Shown here: positions 37,206 through 60,380 of the stretch, in pieces
How positions within the stretch are numbered: the first letter of the stretch is position 1
Layout: each line of letters starts with the position of its first letter
DNA from: Parvularculaceae bacterium
Lineage (GTDB): Bacteria > Pseudomonadota > Alphaproteobacteria > Caulobacterales > Parvularculaceae
Direction: 5' to 3'
NCBI GenBank assembly: GCA_046756245.1
Contig: JBHHVZ010000002.1
Coordinates: forward strand, 8,256-72,255
DNA length: 64,000 bases
Made by a program: the position numbers and the translations under genes
The notes under the pieces: generated by a model
The model's input: only the letters and a program-made list of their open reading frames with translations
The model's database searches: none
What the model was told of the DNA's origin: nothing

Positions 37206-37280
37206 GCGGGCGTAGCTCAGGGGTAGAGCGCAACCTTGCCAAGGTTGAAGTCGTGAGTTCGAATCTCATCGCCCGCTCCA
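37206..37280 (+). tRNA. tRNA-Gly (anticodon GCC), CCA encoded
   Basis: Acceptor stem GCGGGCG/CGCCCGC, D-loop AGCTCAGGGGTAGAGC, anticodon stem-loop CAACC-TTGCCAA-GGTTG, T-arm GTGAGTTCGAATCTCAT. Confidence 0.95.
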
Positions 37281-53013: not shown

Positions 53014-54873
53014 TCAGCCGGGCAGGTTGAGCGGCTTGGAGATATACAAGAGCCGCCAGTCCATATTCTCCATCAGCATGGCGCGCGCCGCCTCCTCGAC
53101 CCGGGCCTGAAGCTCCGAAAGCTTAGGCGCGTCGGCGGCGATGACGGCGTCGAACTTGGCGGCGATCGCTTTCAGGGTCGCCGCCGTGGCGTGCGAGCGC
53201 TCGGCGGTCGAGCCGAATTCCCCCTGCACGCGGATGCCGAAAAACGCCGCGCCAAGGGCCGGCAGGAAGCCGGTCAACAGGGTCACCCAACTCTGCGCTT
53301 TCGACTTCAACGCATACGCCCAGCCCTGCCCGCCGCCGGAAGAAAACGCCAACAGAAGATAGCCGATGCAAACCACAAAGGTTGCGGCGAAAGCCGCTTC
53401 GCCAAGCAGGTGGAGACGGTGCTCGATCTTATGAAGCGCCTGGGCTTTGCGTTCGTGATAGGCGATCTGGGGACGGATTTCCTCGTCGACGATGGCCGCT
53501 GCGATCTTCTTCATCGCCGCCGCGTCGAAGCGGCCCGAAGTCAGTCCCGCTTCGCGCTGCGCAGCTTTAAGATACCAATCGACCCATCCGGCGTCTTCGG
53601 CGTCTTCGCCGGAGGCTTTTTCTTCCTCCCGGCTCGCCTCGCCGGCGGTCAGAAATACATGCCGAAACTGTCTCAATTCCTCAGTGAGCTGACGATAGTC
53701 AATCCATTTTTCGTGCCAGCGCCCGCGCCGGCCAATGACCGTCACGGCAAGGATAAACACGATGATCGCCACCTCCACTGAAATCCAGTAGATTTTAGAT
53801 TCGACGCCCGCAACAAGGTGGAACAGCGCAAGAAAAACGGCGATCGCGGCGAACAGATAATTGAAGAAATATGAAGACCGGTAGAGATTGCCGTAATGCA
53901 CGGCCAGGTGGTCGGCCCACTCAAAACGCGGCGCAATAATGTCTTCGAATATGCGCCGGTCGCCCTCGGCCGCGTTCAGGCGCATAGCGAGCGTTGAGGA
54001 AAGCGCCTCGGCGATCTGGCTTTCGGGTTTTGCAACGGTGAGCCTGATGGTGAAAGGCCAGCGGCCTGCAAGCGCCTTTTCCCAGAACTGAAAGAACGAT
54101 CCGAAATTAAACCCGTGCGGCTTTTCGTTTATGTAATCGCGATAGGCGATGAGCGCATGTGTGCGTTTTCCTGAAAATTCATGCTCGATCTCTGACGGCG
54201 ATGGCGGCGCGAGAATCGCCGAGACCGCCGACTCGATGACGTCGTGCGTCGCCTCCGCCGGCTGGCCGTCCGCCGTGAGCAAAACAGGCGCGGTATCCTT
54301 GACGGCGTTGATCCACACAACCGGCTTGCCCGCAGCCAGCGCCGCATTCTTGATCATCGCGGTGCCGCCGGGGCCGCGCGCTTTCTCCCCGTCCCATATG
54401 GCGATGACGATGTCGGCGTTCTTGAGCGTCACAAGCCCGGCCTGAAGATAGGCGTTTTCCTCTTCGACGCCGGCGGCGCCGCCGCCGTCAAGCTCGGCAA
54501 CCGCATCGGCGTGCGCAAGCAGCGCGTTGAGCGCTTCGACGTCGTCGTCGGAAAAATCGGTTTCGTACTGGTTGCGCGAAAATGGCAGCGGCGCCAACAG
54601 CCGCCAGCCAAGATCGAGCGCGGCCTCCGCCGCCAGCGTGTCGGCCCCGTCCGCAAGCGCGCTGACGAGATAATGCTTCGCCGGCGCCCGCGCGTAATCG
54701 TCCCGAAAGGTTTGTAGCGCCGCATCGACGGCGTCAGTCGCCGCTTTGAGAACGTAGCGCGTCTGGCGCGCGATGCGATCGCGCTGCGAGGCGTCGAGGC
54801 GCTGCAGGCGGTGTCCGGTCACGCCGACGCGGATTGCTGCGGCGGGTTTCGGGGGGTGCGCAGTTTCGCTCAT
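53014..54873 (-). CDS. SLOG-like (YpsA/DprA/LOG-type, or nucleoside deoxyribosyltransferase-like) Rossmannoid domain fused to a 4-TM SLATT-like membrane domain
   Basis: N-terminus: RVGVTGHR, LVSALADGADTLAAEAAL, LAPLPF, ADIVIAIWDGEKARGPGGTAMIKNAALAAGKPVVWI. C-terminus: two TM hairpins (YFFNYLFAAIAVFLALF / IYWISVEVAIIVFILAVTVIG and LGEAAFAATFVVCIGYLLLAF / WVTLLTGFLPALGAAFFGI), preceded by the helices FEWADHLAVHYGNLYR and QIAYHERKAQ. Confidence 0.7.
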   Translation of the reverse strand: MSETAHPPKPAAAIRVGVTGHRLQRLDASQRDRIARQTRYVLKAATDAVDAALQTFRDDYARAPAKHYLVSALADGADTLAAEAALDLGWRLLAPLPFSRNQYETDFSDDDVEALNALLAHADAVAELDGGGAAGVEEENAYLQAGLVTLKNADIVIAIWDGEKARGPGGTAMIKNAALAAGKPVVWINAVKDTAPVLLTADGQPAEATHDVIESAVSAILAPPSPSEIEHEFSGKRTHALIAYRDYINEKPHGFNFGSFFQFWEKALAGRWPFTIRLTVAKPESQIAEALSSTLAMRLNAAEGDRRIFEDIIAPRFEWADHLAVHYGNLYRSSYFFNYLFAAIAVFLALFHLVAGVESKIYWISVEVAIIVFILAVTVIGRRGRWHEKWIDYRQLTEELRQFRHVFLTAGEASREEEKASGEDAEDAGWVDWYLKAAQREAGLTSGRFDAAAMKKIAAAIVDEEIRPQIAYHERKAQALHKIEHRLHLLGEAAFAATFVVCIGYLLLAFSSGGGQGWAYALKSKAQSWVTLLTGFLPALGAAFFGIRVQGEFGSTAERSHATAATLKAIAAKFDAVIAADAPKLSELQARVEEAARAMLMENMDWRLLYISKPLNLPG

Positions 54874-54899
54874 GCGGAATGGCTAAAGCAGAAATCCGT

Positions 54900-56576
54900 T
54901 CAGTCAAGTTCGCGCACAAGCCGGAAGCCGTTGTCATAGTCGCGCCGCGTCGCGAAGCCCTCGATTCGGTGCGCCGCCCGCAACCGCCATCCGCCGGTGT
55001 TCCAGGCGCCGCCTTTGAGCACGCGCGAAATGCAGTCGCCGCCGCGCGGCGCGCCGAAGACGGAAGCGCCGCGATGATCCGGACGCCAACAGTCGGCGAC
55101 CCATTCCCAGACATTGCCGTGCATGTCGTAAACGCCGAACGGATTGGCTGCAAAGCTTCCCGCAGGAAGCGTCCCGCCCGGCGACGCGCCTTCGGGGGCG
55201 CCGGCGTATGGAAAAGCGGCGTCGTAATTGGCCTGGTCCGGCGCCAGCGCCTCGCCGAACGAAAACGGCGCGTCGCCGCCGGCGCGGGCGACATATTCCC
55301 ATTCCGCTTCGCTCGGGAGCCGATAAGTCTGGCCGGTTTTTTCCGACAGCCAGGCGGCGTAGGCGCGCGCGTCGCGCCAGCTCACATTGACCGCCGGCCG
55401 GGAGCCGCGCCCCCAACCGGGATCGGGCGCTCCATATTGATCGCAACCGCCGGCGGCGACGCACGCGTCCCACTCATCGAACGTAACTTCATAGCGTCCG
55501 ATGGCGAACGGTTTTTCAATCGTGACGCCGACGGTCGGGCCTTCGGTCAGGTCGCGGCTTGCTTCGGTTTCCGGCGAGCCCATGGAGAAGGCGCCGGAAG
55601 GGATGACGATCATTTCCGGACAGAAGGCGCAGTCCCTGAATGATTCTCCCGGCGCCGGAATTGCGTCTGCGTTTTCGTCTGCGTCTTCAGGCGGCGGGGC
55701 GTCTTTGGCTTCCTCTTCGGGCGCGCCGGCCTCGGCGGCGCCAGACAAAGATTCAACGCGCTCGACGTCGACGGCCGCGGCCGCGCTTTCCGACGTTGCT
55801 GCTGCTTCGGCTTCGGACGTCTCCGGAGCAGAAAAGCCGAGCATTTGAGCCTCATCGTCCGCGGCGGGTCCATACTCGTCGGCGTCGGCGTCAATCGAAA
55901 GGCCGTCGGGGGTGAAAACTTCCAGCTCCGTCGCGTCATTATCGTCAATGCCGGCGTCGGCGCTGATTTCCTCCGCATGGGATTCTTTCACAGAAACCGG
56001 CGCGTCGGCCTGACCGGAGCCTTTCAGGAGCGTCGGAAACGCGAAATAACCCGCAAGCAAAAGCGCAGCGATAATGGAAAACGCGCCGGCTATGGCGGCG
56101 GTCCGCCTTCCCGCGATTTTTTTGGGCGCGGCCGGCCCGGCTTCGCCCGCATCCTCGTTCCGCGCTTCGGCCGCAGGCCGGAACCGCATCGCCGGCGCGC
56201 CGTCAGCCTGTTCGACGCATTGACGGATTTCGCTCAATAACAACAGCCAGTTGGGATCGCGCCGGTCGCCGCGCCAGTTTCTAAGATCGGCTGTTTTGAA
56301 GCGCCGGAAGCCTTTCGGCGGATCGACATCTTCGATTATTGCAGGAATCAGCGCCCGATTGCGCGCGCCCGCGCGGGATTTTCTCCGTATACGGTGTGAC
56401 TTAACCGATGAAGACGACCACAGAACCAGCGTCGCCGCCGCATCTTCGTCGCGCCGTCCGCGGGCGCCCTTTTCGGCGCCCGATGCGACGGAGAAGCCTT
56501 CGGATTCAAGCGCCGCAACGACGCGGCGAGCAATGTCGCTGTCGTCTTTGGCGCTGTCGATGAAGATGTCGGTCAT
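54900..56576 (-). CDS. TIR-like domain / single TM / acidic linker / FGE-sulfatase (SUMF1-type) domain protein
   Basis: N-terminus: MTDIFIDSAKDDSDIARRVVAALESEGFSV...LVLWSSSSVKS...LIPAIIEDVDPP (TIR_2-like). TM helix: AAIAGAFSIIAALLLAGYFAF. C-terminus: MIVIPSGAFSMGS, YEVTFDEWDACV, PAVNVSWRDARAYAAWL, YRLPSEAEWEYVARAG, YDMHGNVWEWVADCW, GFRLVREL. Start trimmed to ATG 56576. Confidence 0.8.
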   Translation of the reverse strand: MTDIFIDSAKDDSDIARRVVAALESEGFSVASGAEKGARGRRDEDAAATLVLWSSSSVKSHRIRRKSRAGARNRALIPAIIEDVDPPKGFRRFKTADLRNWRGDRRDPNWLLLLSEIRQCVEQADGAPAMRFRPAAEARNEDAGEAGPAAPKKIAGRRTAAIAGAFSIIAALLLAGYFAFPTLLKGSGQADAPVSVKESHAEEISADAGIDDNDATELEVFTPDGLSIDADADEYGPAADDEAQMLGFSAPETSEAEAAATSESAAAAVDVERVESLSGAAEAGAPEEEAKDAPPPEDADENADAIPAPGESFRDCAFCPEMIVIPSGAFSMGSPETEASRDLTEGPTVGVTIEKPFAIGRYEVTFDEWDACVAAGGCDQYGAPDPGWGRGSRPAVNVSWRDARAYAAWLSEKTGQTYRLPSEAEWEYVARAGGDAPFSFGEALAPDQANYDAAFPYAGAPEGASPGGTLPAGSFAANPFGVYDMHGNVWEWVADCWRPDHRGASVFGAPRGGDCISRVLKGGAWNTGGWRLRAAHRIEGFATRRDYDNGFRLVRELD

Positions 56577-56801
56577 GCGCTCCGCCCCTCCCCAATCGAC
56601 GCGGCCGACCCGTCGCGTTTGCCTGGCGGCGGCCGGCGCGTTGCGACGTAAATCGCCTCTATGTGATCGCCCATCGGCGTAGGAAGCGCAAGATACGGGC
56701 CGCCGCATCGATGCGGGGAAAATTTGTTCTTGATCTGTTCTGTTTGTTGCGTCATGGTGCGTTCGCACGGATATCGGGAGACGCAGGGGCAGGAGCCCTC
56801 G

Positions 56802-58373
56802 ATGGTTGCACAGATCGCTACTTTCGCCTTTCACGGGGTCGAGGCCCGTCCGGTTTCGGTTCAGGTTCAGCTTACCGGAGGCGCTTTCGCCTTTGTCATT
56901 GTCGGCCTGCCGGACAAGGCGGTGTCGGAGGCGCGCGAACGGGTCTCGGCGGCGCTCTACGCAGTCGGGCTCGGCCTGCCGCCAAAGCGGATCACGGTCA
57001 ATCTGGCGCCGGCGGACCTGCCCAAGGAAGGCAGCCATTTCGACCTCGCCATCGCGCTCGGCCTGTTGATGGAAATGGGCGCGGCCCCGCGCGACGCGGC
57101 CGACGGCTTCGCGGTGATGGGCGAACTCGGTCTCGACGGATCGGTCGCGCCTGTCGCCGGCGCGCTGCCGGCGGCGGTGGCGGCGAATGCGCGCGGGCTC
57201 GGCCTCATCTGTCCGGAGGCCTCGGGGCCGGAAGCGGCCTGGGCCGGCGGCGACGCGCAAATCCTCGCGCCAAAAAGCCTCATTCAGCTCGTCAACCATT
57301 TCAAGGGAACGCAGGTGCTCTCGCCGCCCGAACCGGGCGGGCTCGCGCCGGCCCCGCCGGCCCCGGACCTCAAGGACGTGAAGGGACAGGAGACCGCCAA
57401 GCGCGCGCTCGAAGTGGCGGCTGCGGGCGGCCATAACCTTTTAATGATCGGCCCGCCGGGCGCCGGAAAGTCGATGCTGGCGGCGCGCCTGCCCGGTCTG
57501 CTGGCGCCGCTATCGCCTGAAGAGATGCTGGAAATCTCGATGGTGCAGTCGCTTGCGGGTCGTTTGGAAGGCGGGCGGCTCACCAGCGCCCGCCCGTTTC
57601 GCGCGCCGCATCATTCGGCGTCGATGGCGGCGATGATCGGCGGCGGCGTCCGGGCGAAGCCGGGGGAGGCGTCCCTCGCCCATCACGGCGTACTGTTTCT
57701 GGATGAATTGCCGGAGTTTTCCGCTCCCGTGCTCGACAGTTTGCGTCAGCCGCTCGAAACCGGCGACGTGATGATCGCGCGGGCCAATTACCATGTCCGC
57801 TATCCCGCCCGCTTCCAGCTTGTCGCGGCGATGAATCCGTGCCGTTGCGGCTACGGGCGGGCGAGCGGACGCGCCTGCGGACGCGGCCCGCATTGCGAGG
57901 CGGCGTATCAGTCCCGCGTGTCGGGCCCGCTCCTCGATCGCATCGACCTCGTCATCGAACTGCCGGCGGTGGCGCCGGCCGATCTCGCGGCGCCGGCCGG
58001 CGGCGAAGACAGCGCGACGGTTGCAGGACGCGTCGCGCGCGCCCGTCAGGCCCAGATTGCGCGCGGCGGCGGCGCAGCGGCGACTGTCGCCTCGAATGCG
58101 GCGCTGCCCGACCAGGATCTCGCCCGGGTCGCCGCGCCTGACGCCGAGGGGGCGGCGTTGCTTGCGCGCGCCTGTGAAGCGCTCAGGCTTTCCGCACGCG
58201 GCTATCACCGTATTCTGCGCGTCGCGCGCACCCTCGCCGATCTCGATGGGGCGGAAGGCGTCAAGCGCCGGCATGTGGCCGAAGCGATCAGCTATCGCCG
58301 CCGCGAGGACGGCGCGCCGCAGGCGAGAGACGCTCAAGCCGGCGCCGAAAGCGGCGCCGCGCAGCTTTATTAA
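56802..58373 (+). CDS. comM: YifB/ComM-family Mg-chelatase-like AAA+ ATPase
   Basis: N-terminal Lon-protease-like domain, Walker A GPPGAGKSMLA, VLFLDELPEF, and a C-terminal region with a Cys cluster. Start trimmed to ATG 56802. Confidence 0.92.
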   Translation: MVAQIATFAFHGVEARPVSVQVQLTGGAFAFVIVGLPDKAVSEARERVSAALYAVGLGLPPKRITVNLAPADLPKEGSHFDLAIALGLLMEMGAAPRDAADGFAVMGELGLDGSVAPVAGALPAAVAANARGLGLICPEASGPEAAWAGGDAQILAPKSLIQLVNHFKGTQVLSPPEPGGLAPAPPAPDLKDVKGQETAKRALEVAAAGGHNLLMIGPPGAGKSMLAARLPGLLAPLSPEEMLEISMVQSLAGRLEGGRLTSARPFRAPHHSASMAAMIGGGVRAKPGEASLAHHGVLFLDELPEFSAPVLDSLRQPLETGDVMIARANYHVRYPARFQLVAAMNPCRCGYGRASGRACGRGPHCEAAYQSRVSGPLLDRIDLVIELPAVAPADLAAPAGGEDSATVAGRVARARQAQIARGGGAAATVASNAALPDQDLARVAAPDAEGAALLARACEALRLSARGYHRILRVARTLADLDGAEGVKRRHVAEAISYRRREDGAPQARDAQAGAESGAAQLY

Positions 58374-58430: not shown

Positions 58431-60380
58431 ATGGGACCGTCAATAATGCTTAATCGAAAACCGGGCGAAGAAGCCGAGCAACGGGAATTGATCGTGCTTT
58501 GCGACGCGGACGACAAAATCCGCTTCGTCAATCGGGCTTTTTCGAAGCATTTCGGCGCGGCGCCGGAAAAATGGGCCGGGCGCGCATTCGCGCCGGGAAA
58601 CCGCGCCGCCGCGCCCGGCGCGCCGGCGCGCTACCGTACGCAGGCCACGGCGCGCAAAGAAGTCTGCTTCATCGGCTGGGAGGAAATCCTGCTCGAGGCG
58701 GGCGAGCGGCTTTACGCCGGCCGCATCGTCCATCCGGAAGACACAGCCCGAAAAGAACCGCCTGCGCCGGACAGTGTTGATACGGACGATATAGAAGGCA
58801 TTGAACAGGGCGTTGAACGCCGCGCCGACTCCGACCCTGATGAGAACGAAAGTCCCAGTGTCGCCGAAGACGCCAAGATGCGCTTTCTTGCGACCATGAG
58901 TCATGAGATGCGCACGCCGCTTAACGGCATTCTGGGCATGACGGGGCTTCTTCTCGATACGGAATTATCGCCCAATCAGCGCGCTTACGCCGAAGCCGTG
59001 CGTGAGTCCGGCGCCGCACTTCTGGCGTTGATCAATGACATTCTGGACTATTCGAAGATCGAAGCCGGCCGGCTGGTGCTCGAACAGGCGCCGCTCGACC
59101 CGTACGCGCTGGTGCAAAGCGTCGCCGAGTTGCTGTCGCCGAAAGCCGCCGAAAAAGGCATAGAGATCGCTTCCGTGATCGACGCGGACGTGCCGCGCCG
59201 CCTGTTCGGCGACGAAGCGCGGCTGAGGCAGATTCTGATTAATCTCGCCGGCAACGGCGTCAAATTCACCGACCGCGGCGGCGTCTCTATAGAAGCGCGC
59301 GTAGCCGCAACAGCCGGCGATCTCGTCACGCTCGAAATCGCCGTGCGCGACACCGGAGTCGGCATTCCTCCCGCTGCGCAAAAGGCGATCTTCGAGGAAT
59401 TCGCCCAGGCCAATGACGGCCGTCCGCGCCGCGCCGAAGGCACCGGCCTCGGCCTCACCATTGCGCAAAAGCTGGTCCGCGCCATGGGCGGCGACATCCG
59501 GCTCGAAAGCGTCAAAGGCGAAGGCAGCGTATTTACGTTTTCCTGCGCGCTGGAATGGGACGGCGCGCCGCCCAAGCGCCTCAAAGGCGATCCCGGGCCG
59601 GTCGTTATCCTGACTCGCTCGGCGCTTCTGGGCCGAGTCACCACATTGCAGCTCGAAGCCGTCGGCGCCGCCGATGTCCGTGTGGTCGCCTCCCTGTCCG
59701 ACGCGCTCGAAGCGGTTTCGGATGCGCCCGACGCGGTCGTGCTTTGCGATTTTTATTTCGCCGCCAATGGCGGGGAAAAGCTGGCCGAAAAGGCGCGCCG
59801 CGCGCTGGTCATGTTGTCGCCGCTGTCGCGCGGCCGGCTGGAAAGCCTGCGCGAGGCCGGGTTTGACGGCTATCTGATCAAGCCCGTCCGTCAGTCCTCG
59901 CTGCACGCCCAGATCACCGGCGCAAAGTCCGAATCGGCGCCTTCAACCGCGGGCGCCGCGCCGGACAAAAAATCCGGCCCGGCCAAAAAACTCCGCATCC
60001 TTCTGGCGGAGGACAACCAGATCAACGCCGTGCTCGCCGTCGCGCTCATCAAGCGCGCCGGTCACTCCGTCGACGTCGCCGCAAACGGCGCCGAAGCCGT
60101 AACGGCGGTTCGGAATGCGCCCTACGACCTCGTGCTGATGGACATGCACATGCCCGAAATGGATGGACTCGAAGCGGCCCGGCGCATCCGCAAGCTTGAA
60201 GACGACGCGCGCGACACGCCGATTGTCGCGCTCACTGCAAACGCCATGGCCCACGACCGGCAGAAGTGCCTTTCGGCCGGCATGAACGATTTTCTTTCAA
60301 AGCCGTTCGACCCGGACGACCTTGAGGAGCTGCTCGACAAATGGGGCGGCGAGCGCCGGGCGCTCTACACCGCCTCATAA
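58431..60380 (+). CDS. Hybrid sensor histidine kinase / response regulator
   Basis: PAS-like N-terminus, H-box [14 protein letters not shown] boxes ([22 protein letters not shown]), a middle receiver-like domain and a C-terminal receiver with [14 protein letters not shown]. Confidence 0.9.

Follow-up and report, generated by a model that had tools for sequence, protein, structure and literature searches.

Does a TIR-like protein encoded beside a putative membrane effector make the signal that the effector reads, or does it control its neighbour in another way? This question is raised by two genes, here called A and B, in a stretch of 64,000 nucleotides from a Parvularculaceae bacterium (the window, i.e. 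the whole stretch that was analysed). Both genes lie on the minus strand in the same direction and together fill positions 53014-56576, based on the list of open reading frames (ORFs). An initial annotation, made from the letters alone, had given their coordinates, strand and 26-nucleotide gap and had called a TIR-like domain, a transmembrane (TM) helix and an FGE-like domain in A, and a SLOG domain and two SLATT hairpins in B. The ORFs and the sequence agree with the former, and Pfam, NCBIfam, Foldseek and a TM scan agree with the latter. It had also proposed that the TIR of A makes an NAD-derived signal which is read by the SLOG domain. This step is not supported at the window locus because the TIR has lost its catalytic Glu (Lys stands in its position), the Trp before it and its BB loop, while canonical paralogues and the other partners of B keep them. 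Since signal-making by the window TIR is not credible, we favour a reading to which we give about even weight: that A and B form an inner-membrane module in which A, a transmembrane protein without catalytic activity, serves B as its sensor or regulator. The mode of signalling is probably one that has not been described before.

54900..56576, minus strand: gene A, 558 residues; TIR-like domain, one TM helix, acidic linker and PvdO/FGE-sulfatase-like domain (ORF, translation, Pfam)
53014..54873, minus strand: gene B, 619 residues; YpsA-like SLOG domain, alpha/beta linker and two SLATT modules of two TM segments (ORF, NCBIfam SLATT_1, homologues, model)
54874..54899, minus strand: A–B spacer, 26 nucleotides (sequence)

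The TIR-like domain of A

56202..56576, minus strand: TIR-like domain of A, residues 1-125, predicted to be cytoplasmic (TIR_2, profile against PDB TIRs, alignments)

Concerning the N-terminal region of A, the Pfam TIR_2 model matches residues 4-102 with 27.2 bits, just under its cutoff of 28, and a single-sequence query of the region against the PDB gives a chance match only. A profile is required: built from the region and its relatives, it matches the solved TIRs Hydra TRR2, 7UXR, PdTIR 3H16, BtpA, TcpB and AbTIR. Also, the domain shows 37-42% full-length identity to proteins with clear TIR or TIR_2 matches. Based on these profile matches and identities, we take the TIR homology of the A N-terminus to be real.

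In enzymatic TIRs the catalytic Glu is found four residues after a conserved Trp. The same spacing is seen in the stretch 'RRWVRYE' of Bacillus cereus ThsB, as given in a preprint on Thoeris systems (bioRxiv 10.64898/2025.12.03.692087, December 2025). When window A is aligned with canonical TIR-TM-FGE proteins and Thoeris TIRs, Lys66 occupies the Glu position and Arg62 the position of the Trp, and the BB loop of about 12 residues is deleted. The segment reads 'SHRIRRKSRAG', with no acidic residue nearby; the nearest relative of window A reads 'RVRKKAAAG', and in the 24 Marinicaulis-type orthologues the segment is 'ARLHxQAR(E/D)A', where Gln takes the place of the Glu. In all Parvularculaceae A–B pairs the TIR is without the Glu, the Trp before it and the BB loop. 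The canonical stand-alone TIR-TM-FGE proteins keep 'SNWVQEEADDG' (WVQEE), 'DIFISYSRxDRE' and the BB-loop segment 'WWDPEIPPGESF', of which window A has no counterpart. The Glu is also kept in all other partners of B homologues (the WD40, DUF4189, TPR, SIR2-TIR and Shewanella types) and in the Nitrospira and Streptomyces TIRs that the preprint lists under '4TM SLOG'.

The degenerate A TIRs conserve the motifs IVxWS, LIPV and DLSGWxGDxxDPRW. The ratio of nonsynonymous to synonymous substitution rates (dN/dS) is about 0.24 for the TIR-like domain, 0.23 for the FGE domain and about 0.68 for the linker, all rough figures because dS is near saturation. Judged by these comparisons, the TIR-like domain of A is under purifying selection and not decaying, and it is probably a pseudoenzyme in this lineage.

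Distribution of the pair across bacterial lineages

We found 122 full-length homologues of B; the alignment holds 26 homologues. A profile search places the family in 4,756 clusters at 50% identity (E <= 1e-30), nearly all of them full-length at about 600 residues. The scan of gene neighbourhoods took one genome per species, and 80 of the 316 loci that it returned were retained; a TIR neighbour was defined as a TIR-domain gene within 4.5 kb, and full flanks as at least 3 kb on both sides. Of the 61 loci with full flanks, 58 have a TIR gene near the B homologue; among all 81 loci the count is 70, and those without a TIR match are mostly truncated contigs. The loci as a whole come from Alphaproteobacteria, Dadabacteria, Thermodesulfobacteriota, Acidobacteria, Bacillota and Shewanella; on a Caballeronia plasmid, too, the gene after the B homologue is a TIR protein according to the PGAP annotation. 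An apparent absence of TIR genes from half of the B loci was rejected as an artefact of a jackhmmer search from the window TIR, which missed the Sphingomicrobium, Shewanella and Acidobacteria partners that other TIR seeds found. The partners have only the TIR in common; the rest of the protein is TM+FGE, TM+WD40, TM+DUF4189, TM+TPR, a SIR2_2-TIR fusion or a beta-propeller. A hydrophobic segment follows the TIR in at least 51 of the 70 partners, as judged by a crude cutoff on hydropathy.

Within the Parvularculaceae, a TIR-TM-FGE gene adjoins B in all 28 loci. At least 28 species have A and B both intact, and the pair sits in a fixed chromosomal slot between comM and dnaK. The closest relative of the window pair (L081; B 75% and A 54% identical) has the order A to B as in the window, and Marinicaulis has the order B to A, still inside this slot. 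As both orders occur in one comM–dnaK slot, the adjacency of A and B has outlived a rearrangement. Whether the two genes co-occur as neighbours in other genomes had been left by the initial annotation as a check on its proposal, and the answer is that they do, across phyla and through the swap in gene order. The comparative evidence for a functional link between B and the TIR protein is very good.

Several loci have additional components. In about 25 Sphingomicrobium/Sphingomonas loci the TIR-TM-TPR gene and the gene of the B homologue are separated by one for a conserved protein of 170-200 residues with no Pfam match (e.g. L048 7438-7953 and L062 7390-7998, both plus strand), so that the system seems to exist there in a form with three genes. 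The Sphingomicrobium versions, like those of the Parvularculaceae, lie in fixed housekeeping contexts. A protein with TrkA_N and RyR domains lies immediately upstream of the B homologue in a metagenome-assembled genome (MAG) of Thermincola (L037 6120-7919, plus strand), and a similar one adjoins a canonical TIR-FGE gene on another contig (L092 5424-7952, minus strand); it may be a further recurrent partner. Some distant relatives adjoin STAND NTPase, SIR2-TIR and SLOG+patatin genes. The acidobacterial loci L030 (5871-7547, 10047-15187) and L029 (6968-10804) contain a B homologue, a stand-alone SLOG protein that is related to the N-terminal domain of B (hhalign E 5.6e-6) together with patatin, a SIR2_2-TIR fusion and a STAND-type NTPase, and their gene content marks them as a multi-effector conflict island. 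Two B-family paralogues are found in tandem in a Thermodesulfobacteriota MAG (L066 4522-6375 and 6382-8166). In the TIR partners of L023, L025, L026 and L027 the WD40 repeats lie between N- and C-terminal groups of TM helices (e.g. L023 9938-12100); the partner in Parvularcula lutaonensis (L027) is convergent with B and not co-directional.

Conserved domains of B

54274..54837, minus strand: SLOG domain of B, residues 13-200, predicted to be cytoplasmic (alignments, Foldseek, GxD/E signature)
53644..53967, minus strand: first SLATT module of B, residues 303-410, TM segments 339-357 and 363-381 (NCBIfam SLATT_1, TM scan, invariant columns)
53038..53523, minus strand: second SLATT-like module of B, residues 451-612, TM segments 493-511 and 529-547 (weak SLATT_4 match, second SLATT_1 stretch, hairpin in the model, TM scan)

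The N-terminal domain of B has no sequence-level match in PDB or Pfam, and profiles of the full-length protein and of this domain against PDB gave nothing significant; the SLOG assignment is therefore based on fold comparison and motifs. The model of the N-terminal 225 residues has a mean predicted local distance difference test score (pLDDT) of 92.6. Its best Foldseek match is YpsA (2NX2; E 2.4e-7, TM-score 0.70, probability 1.0) at a sequence identity of about 20%, in agreement with the SLOG-type fold first proposed. Further matches at probability 1.0 are DprA, ShosA, TM1055, the Moco carrier protein (MCP) and LOG, and the ADP-ribose (ADPR)-binding domain of TRPM2 matches more weakly (probability 0.6-0.84). 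Invariant in the 26 aligned homologues are G17-V-T-G20, G76-x-D78 (G76-A-D78 in B), P97, W160-x-G162 and G169-G-T171. These motifs are unchanged in the clade whose TIRs lack the Glu. GxD/E is described in the literature as the substrate-binding signature of the YpsA clade, and SLOG domains of this clade are implicated there in sensing variants of cyclic ADP-ribose (cADPR).

Concerning the C-terminal region, NCBIfam NF033634 (SLATT_1) matches residues 316-416 with 46.4 bits and passes its cutoff of 41, so that the SLATT-like character first suggested from the letters is borne out. There is also a second SLATT_1 stretch, and NCBIfam SLATT_4 matches weakly at residues 502-594. Pfam SLATT_1 and DUF4231 stay under their cutoffs for window B, and PF14015 is precomputed on many homologues. 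The motif RWHEKWIDYRQLxExLR, which follows the first SLATT module, is invariant in the alignment. The four TM segments form two hairpins (residues 339-381 and 493-547) within long helices of the AlphaFold model; for the full protein, predicted with the 26-homologue alignment, pLDDT is 88.7 and the predicted template modelling score 0.87. SLATT is described in the literature as a predicted nucleotide-responsive pore effector. On the model, B is a SLOG fold fused to SLATT, i.e. a candidate signal-binding domain with a candidate toxic module.

Membrane helix, linker and FGE-like domain of A

56037..56093, minus strand: TM helix of A, residues 162-180, N-terminus inside (hydropathy 2.17; four K/R upstream against one downstream)
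55647..56033, minus strand: acidic, Ala-rich linker of A, residues 182-310, predicted to be periplasmic (35 D/E against 4 K/R in 129 residues)
54912..55622, minus strand: PvdO-like FGE-sulfatase domain of A, residues 319-555, predicted to be periplasmic (Pfam PF03781, PDB 5HHA)

The K/R residues lie N-terminal of the TM helix and the linker after it is acidic, which places the TIR-like domain in the cytoplasm and the FGE-like domain in the periplasm. The linker is poorly conserved. The C-terminal domain matches Pfam FGE-sulfatase PF03781 from model position 2 to 255 of 255 (2.3e-52), so the complete FGE-sulfatase/SUMF1-type domain of the initial annotation stands in its extent; it is, however, PvdO-like and without the FGE catalytic Cys. 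Its closest solved relative is PvdO (PDB 5HHA, 3.9e-50), which it matches end to end. The NCBIfam PvdO model gives 206.6 bits and does not reach its equivalog cutoff of 500, which puts the domain in the fold subfamily of PvdO, yet, by these scores, in a different protein. When A is aligned to human FGE, 'GGAWNTG---GWRLR' is found opposite 'GGSYMSHRSYCYRYR', with a gap over the Cys336/Cys341 loop, and A has no Cys in the region of this catalytic pair. As judged from the alignment, the FGE-like domain of A is a non-catalytic binding module and not an FGE-type enzyme; FGE-type domains are already known as non-enzymatic binding modules in conflict systems.

Comparison with known systems

The preprint (bioRxiv 10.64898/2025.12.03.692087) catalogues 29 putative Thoeris types, among them 'SLOG and 4TM' or '4TM SLOG', whose sources are Nitrospira nitrosa COMA1 and Streptomyces sp. 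GKU 895 (its Table S1/S2). As listed there, a TIR gene adjoins a SLOG plus four-TM effector, which is also the architecture of B; the difference is that these TIRs keep the catalytic Glu, where window A has Lys66. Membership of B in the '4TM SLOG' effector family by sequence is not confirmed: the Nitrospira TIR query gave six matches in a collection that does not contain this exact protein, and the sole longer contig (4,983 bp) has no such neighbour. The same source reports type VII as validated, with ThsB (TIR), ThsH (SLATT) and canonical cADPR as the signal, and predicts that ThsH oligomerises and breaches the membrane once the ligand is bound. Type VII resembles the window pair in joining a TIR partner to a SLATT membrane effector. 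However, ThsH is annotated there with SLATT only and its pocket is modelled between SLATT protomers, whereas B has a dedicated SLOG and two SLATT modules, and the TIR of the window pair is membrane-anchored and without the catalytic Glu.

The initial annotation knew of no experimentally characterised system with this exact architecture. That statement has to be revised, with the 'SLOG and 4TM' type already listed and TIR plus SLATT validated as type VII. The text and tables of the preprint (bioRxiv 10.64898/2025.12.03.692087) do not describe membrane-anchored TIR partners with extracytoplasmic domains, an FGE fusion or a naturally Glu-less TIR. They give type III as several TIRs with a SLOG effector.

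Type I (ThsB TIR with ThsA SIR2-SLOG, signal 3'cADPR) and type III resemble the pair in that a SLOG domain receives a TIR-made ADPR derivative. The output described for them is NAD+ depletion via SIR2, in contrast to the SLATT membrane module of B, and the annotation given for their TIRs is that of active enzymes that produce the signal. The TIRs of these two types are soluble. Looking at what marks a Thoeris system, the window pair has the TIR-domain gene beside the effector and the SLOG fused to SLATT, but not the catalytic Glu of W-x-x-x-E. The ancestral logic of the family was almost certainly Thoeris-like, in that a TIR makes the signal, SLOG reads it and SLATT acts on the membrane.

Three proteins outside Thoeris share parts of the pair. 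YpsA (Bacillus subtilis, PDB 2NX2) has the fold of the N-terminal domain of B and the GxD/E signature, but it is a small, soluble protein that regulates cell division and lacks a TM region. PvdO (Pseudomonas aeruginosa, PDB 5HHA) has the periplasmic FGE fold of A, and the FGE Cys pair is missing in both, but it is a soluble pyoverdine-maturation protein with no TIR or TM fusion. TRPM2, a eukaryotic ADPR-gated cation channel, couples a cytoplasmic SLOG-fold domain (MHR1/2) to a membrane-conducting module as B may do; its membrane domain is unrelated to that of B, and the likeness is an analogy of logic, not membership.

Proposed mechanism and alternatives

In the mechanism we favour, A and B would make up a module of two proteins in the inner membrane, derived from a Thoeris-like system of TIR plus effector. 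B would be the effector: its cytoplasmic YpsA-type SLOG domain would bind a small nucleotide ligand, most likely a derivative of NAD or ADPR, and binding would make the two SLATT hairpins open the membrane or breach it. A would be a single-pass receptor that has a non-catalytic PvdO/FGE-like binding domain in the periplasm and a TIR-like domain in the cytoplasm, and would control B as a sensor or regulator without making the signal. Signalling would then run from A to B by one of two routes: the TIR-like domain of A contacts B (SLOG) directly, or A modulates a paralogue whose TIR has the Glu and which makes the ligand in trans. A more specific form of this mechanism, which we offer tentatively, is a transmembrane TIR receptor without NADase chemistry. 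The FGE-like domain would sense an extracytoplasmic cue, the Glu-less TIR would relay it by contact or hetero-oligomerisation, as in animal Toll-like receptors, and a SLOG-gated SLATT channel would receive it; as a fixed part of the core genome in a family of marine Alphaproteobacteria, the module could have a housekeeping role in envelope or ion signalling rather than in abortive infection.

Several observations weigh against this mechanism or against a defence role. We know of no precedent for a bacterial TIR pseudoenzyme that signals via contact, and the dN/dS values carry the imprecision already stated. The system is uncharacterised, as first noted, and PADLOC, run on A and B, finds no system, its only match being a non-significant one to ShosA (E 0.05). 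No match to the B family is found in phage records, and the family is nearly absent from plasmids; together with the fixed core position this is atypical of defence, so the role may not be immunity. Both '4TM SLOG' systems were cloned in Escherichia coli and gave no defence (bioRxiv 10.64898/2025.12.03.692087).

Of the explanations that compete with a regulatory A, the one that survives best, though we think it rather doubtful, has the signal made in trans: a Glu-bearing TIR-TM-FGE paralogue feeds the SLOG domain of B, and A is a dead paralogue that serves as a hetero-oligomerising brake, a decoy or a specificity subunit. Canonical paralogues do exist in the same bacterial family (Marinicaulis, Hyphococcus), where they stand alone, and their FGE domains are 50-60% identical to those of the A type. 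TIR activity requires oligomerisation, which also fits this explanation. One MAG, JANQMJ01, carries both an A–B pair (L016, JANQMJ010000006.1) and a canonical gene, P0134 (L093, JANQMJ010000014.1, 4001-5542). However, such co-occurrence is seen in this one genome only, and no Glu-bearing TIR-TM-FGE paralogue is found in the 64-kb window. Also, canonical TIR-TM-FGE genes are widespread without B nearby, which suggests that they have a function of their own. Some of them sit at a conserved rpmB-ALAD-MarR locus. In JANQMJ01 the canonical gene has a RelE/HTH pair next to it and belongs to an rpmB-Vut_1-ALAD-MarR locus, and the A–B pair, with a Gln-TIR, is at comM–dnaK; the rpmB context recurs in L087.

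It is unlikely that A works as a canonical Thoeris-like enzyme, with the FGE-like domain sensing a periplasmic cue, the TIR turning NAD+ into a cyclic or linear ADPR signal, SLOG binding it and SLATT killing or arresting the cell. The wider family probably does work by such a scheme, and the context speaks for it: the SLOG ligand motifs are retained in window B, every other B partner and the '4TM SLOG' TIRs keep the Glu, and type VII, as reported, uses cADPR with a TIR and a SLATT protein. Window A itself speaks against it, with Lys66, Arg62, no BB loop and no acidic residue nearby; to our knowledge, Glu-to-Gln or Glu-to-Ala substitution abolishes every characterised enzymatic TIR (ThsB E85, SARM1 E642, AbTir E208).

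Less probable again is a decaying relic, in which A is the degenerating remnant of a Thoeris TIR and B acts alone or is also non-functional. The lost catalytic residues and the lack of a phenotype reported for the '4TM SLOG' systems would fit, but at least 28 species carry A and B in intact form, the TIR-like domain evolves under the same constraint as the FGE domain with its motifs kept, and the adjacency is maintained through rearrangement. It is highly improbable that chance has placed B, as an unrelated membrane protein, beside an A that works by itself as a PvdO-like protein of the periplasm: TIR-TM-FGE proteins do often stand alone, but the synteny counts, with a TIR beside the B homologue across phyla in varied partner architectures, contradict it.

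A regulatory A bears on wider questions. TIR signalling is common to immunity in bacteria, plants and animals, and the B family comprises thousands of 50%-identity clusters that are almost always accompanied by a TIR gene. In the partners with a hydrophobic segment after the TIR, an FGE, WD40, DUF4189 or TPR-type domain follows, which suggests sensing outside the cytoplasm, a feature not described for Thoeris in the preprint's text and tables. The locus also offers a natural experiment, in that purifying selection acts on a Glu-less TIR, the ligand site of the effector is predicted to be intact, and at least one of the genomes with such a pair also has a Glu-bearing paralogue. It bears on bacterial TIRs as scaffolds or regulators, on the SLOG-SLATT ligand and on the domestication of such modules for non-defence roles.

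Gene boundaries and neighbouring genes

The start of gene A at 56576 is also the start of a 100% identical protein of 558 residues in NCBI, from a Parvularculaceae MAG and named 'SUMF1/EgtB/PvdO family', and it is backed by independent gene calls on two other contigs. An ORF of 844 residues (54900-57434, minus strand) was rejected as gene A because it overlaps comM and the homologues start at 56576. Long spurious ORFs are frequent at high GC, such as this extension over comM and an ORF of 269 residues at 54834-55643 (plus strand), so that mechanical ORF lists mislead in the A–B region. A terminator scan finds no terminator-like hairpin inside the 26-nucleotide spacer and a promoter scan no sigma-70-like site; from the layout, A and B are probably transcribed together across the spacer. 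The setting between dnaK and comM and the lack of GC deviation are as initially noted: dnaK/dnaJ lie downstream and comM, divergent, upstream, and the GC content of the A–B region is the same as that of its surroundings.

Rfam and tRNA scans give nothing that bears on the A–B locus; the sole Rfam/ARAGORN match in the 64 kb is a tRNA-Gly(GCC) at 37206-37280 (plus strand). Beyond comM, a hybrid histidine kinase (HisKA-HATPase-REC) is encoded at 58431-60380 (plus strand), and about 24 Parvularculaceae loci have it conserved at the corresponding place.

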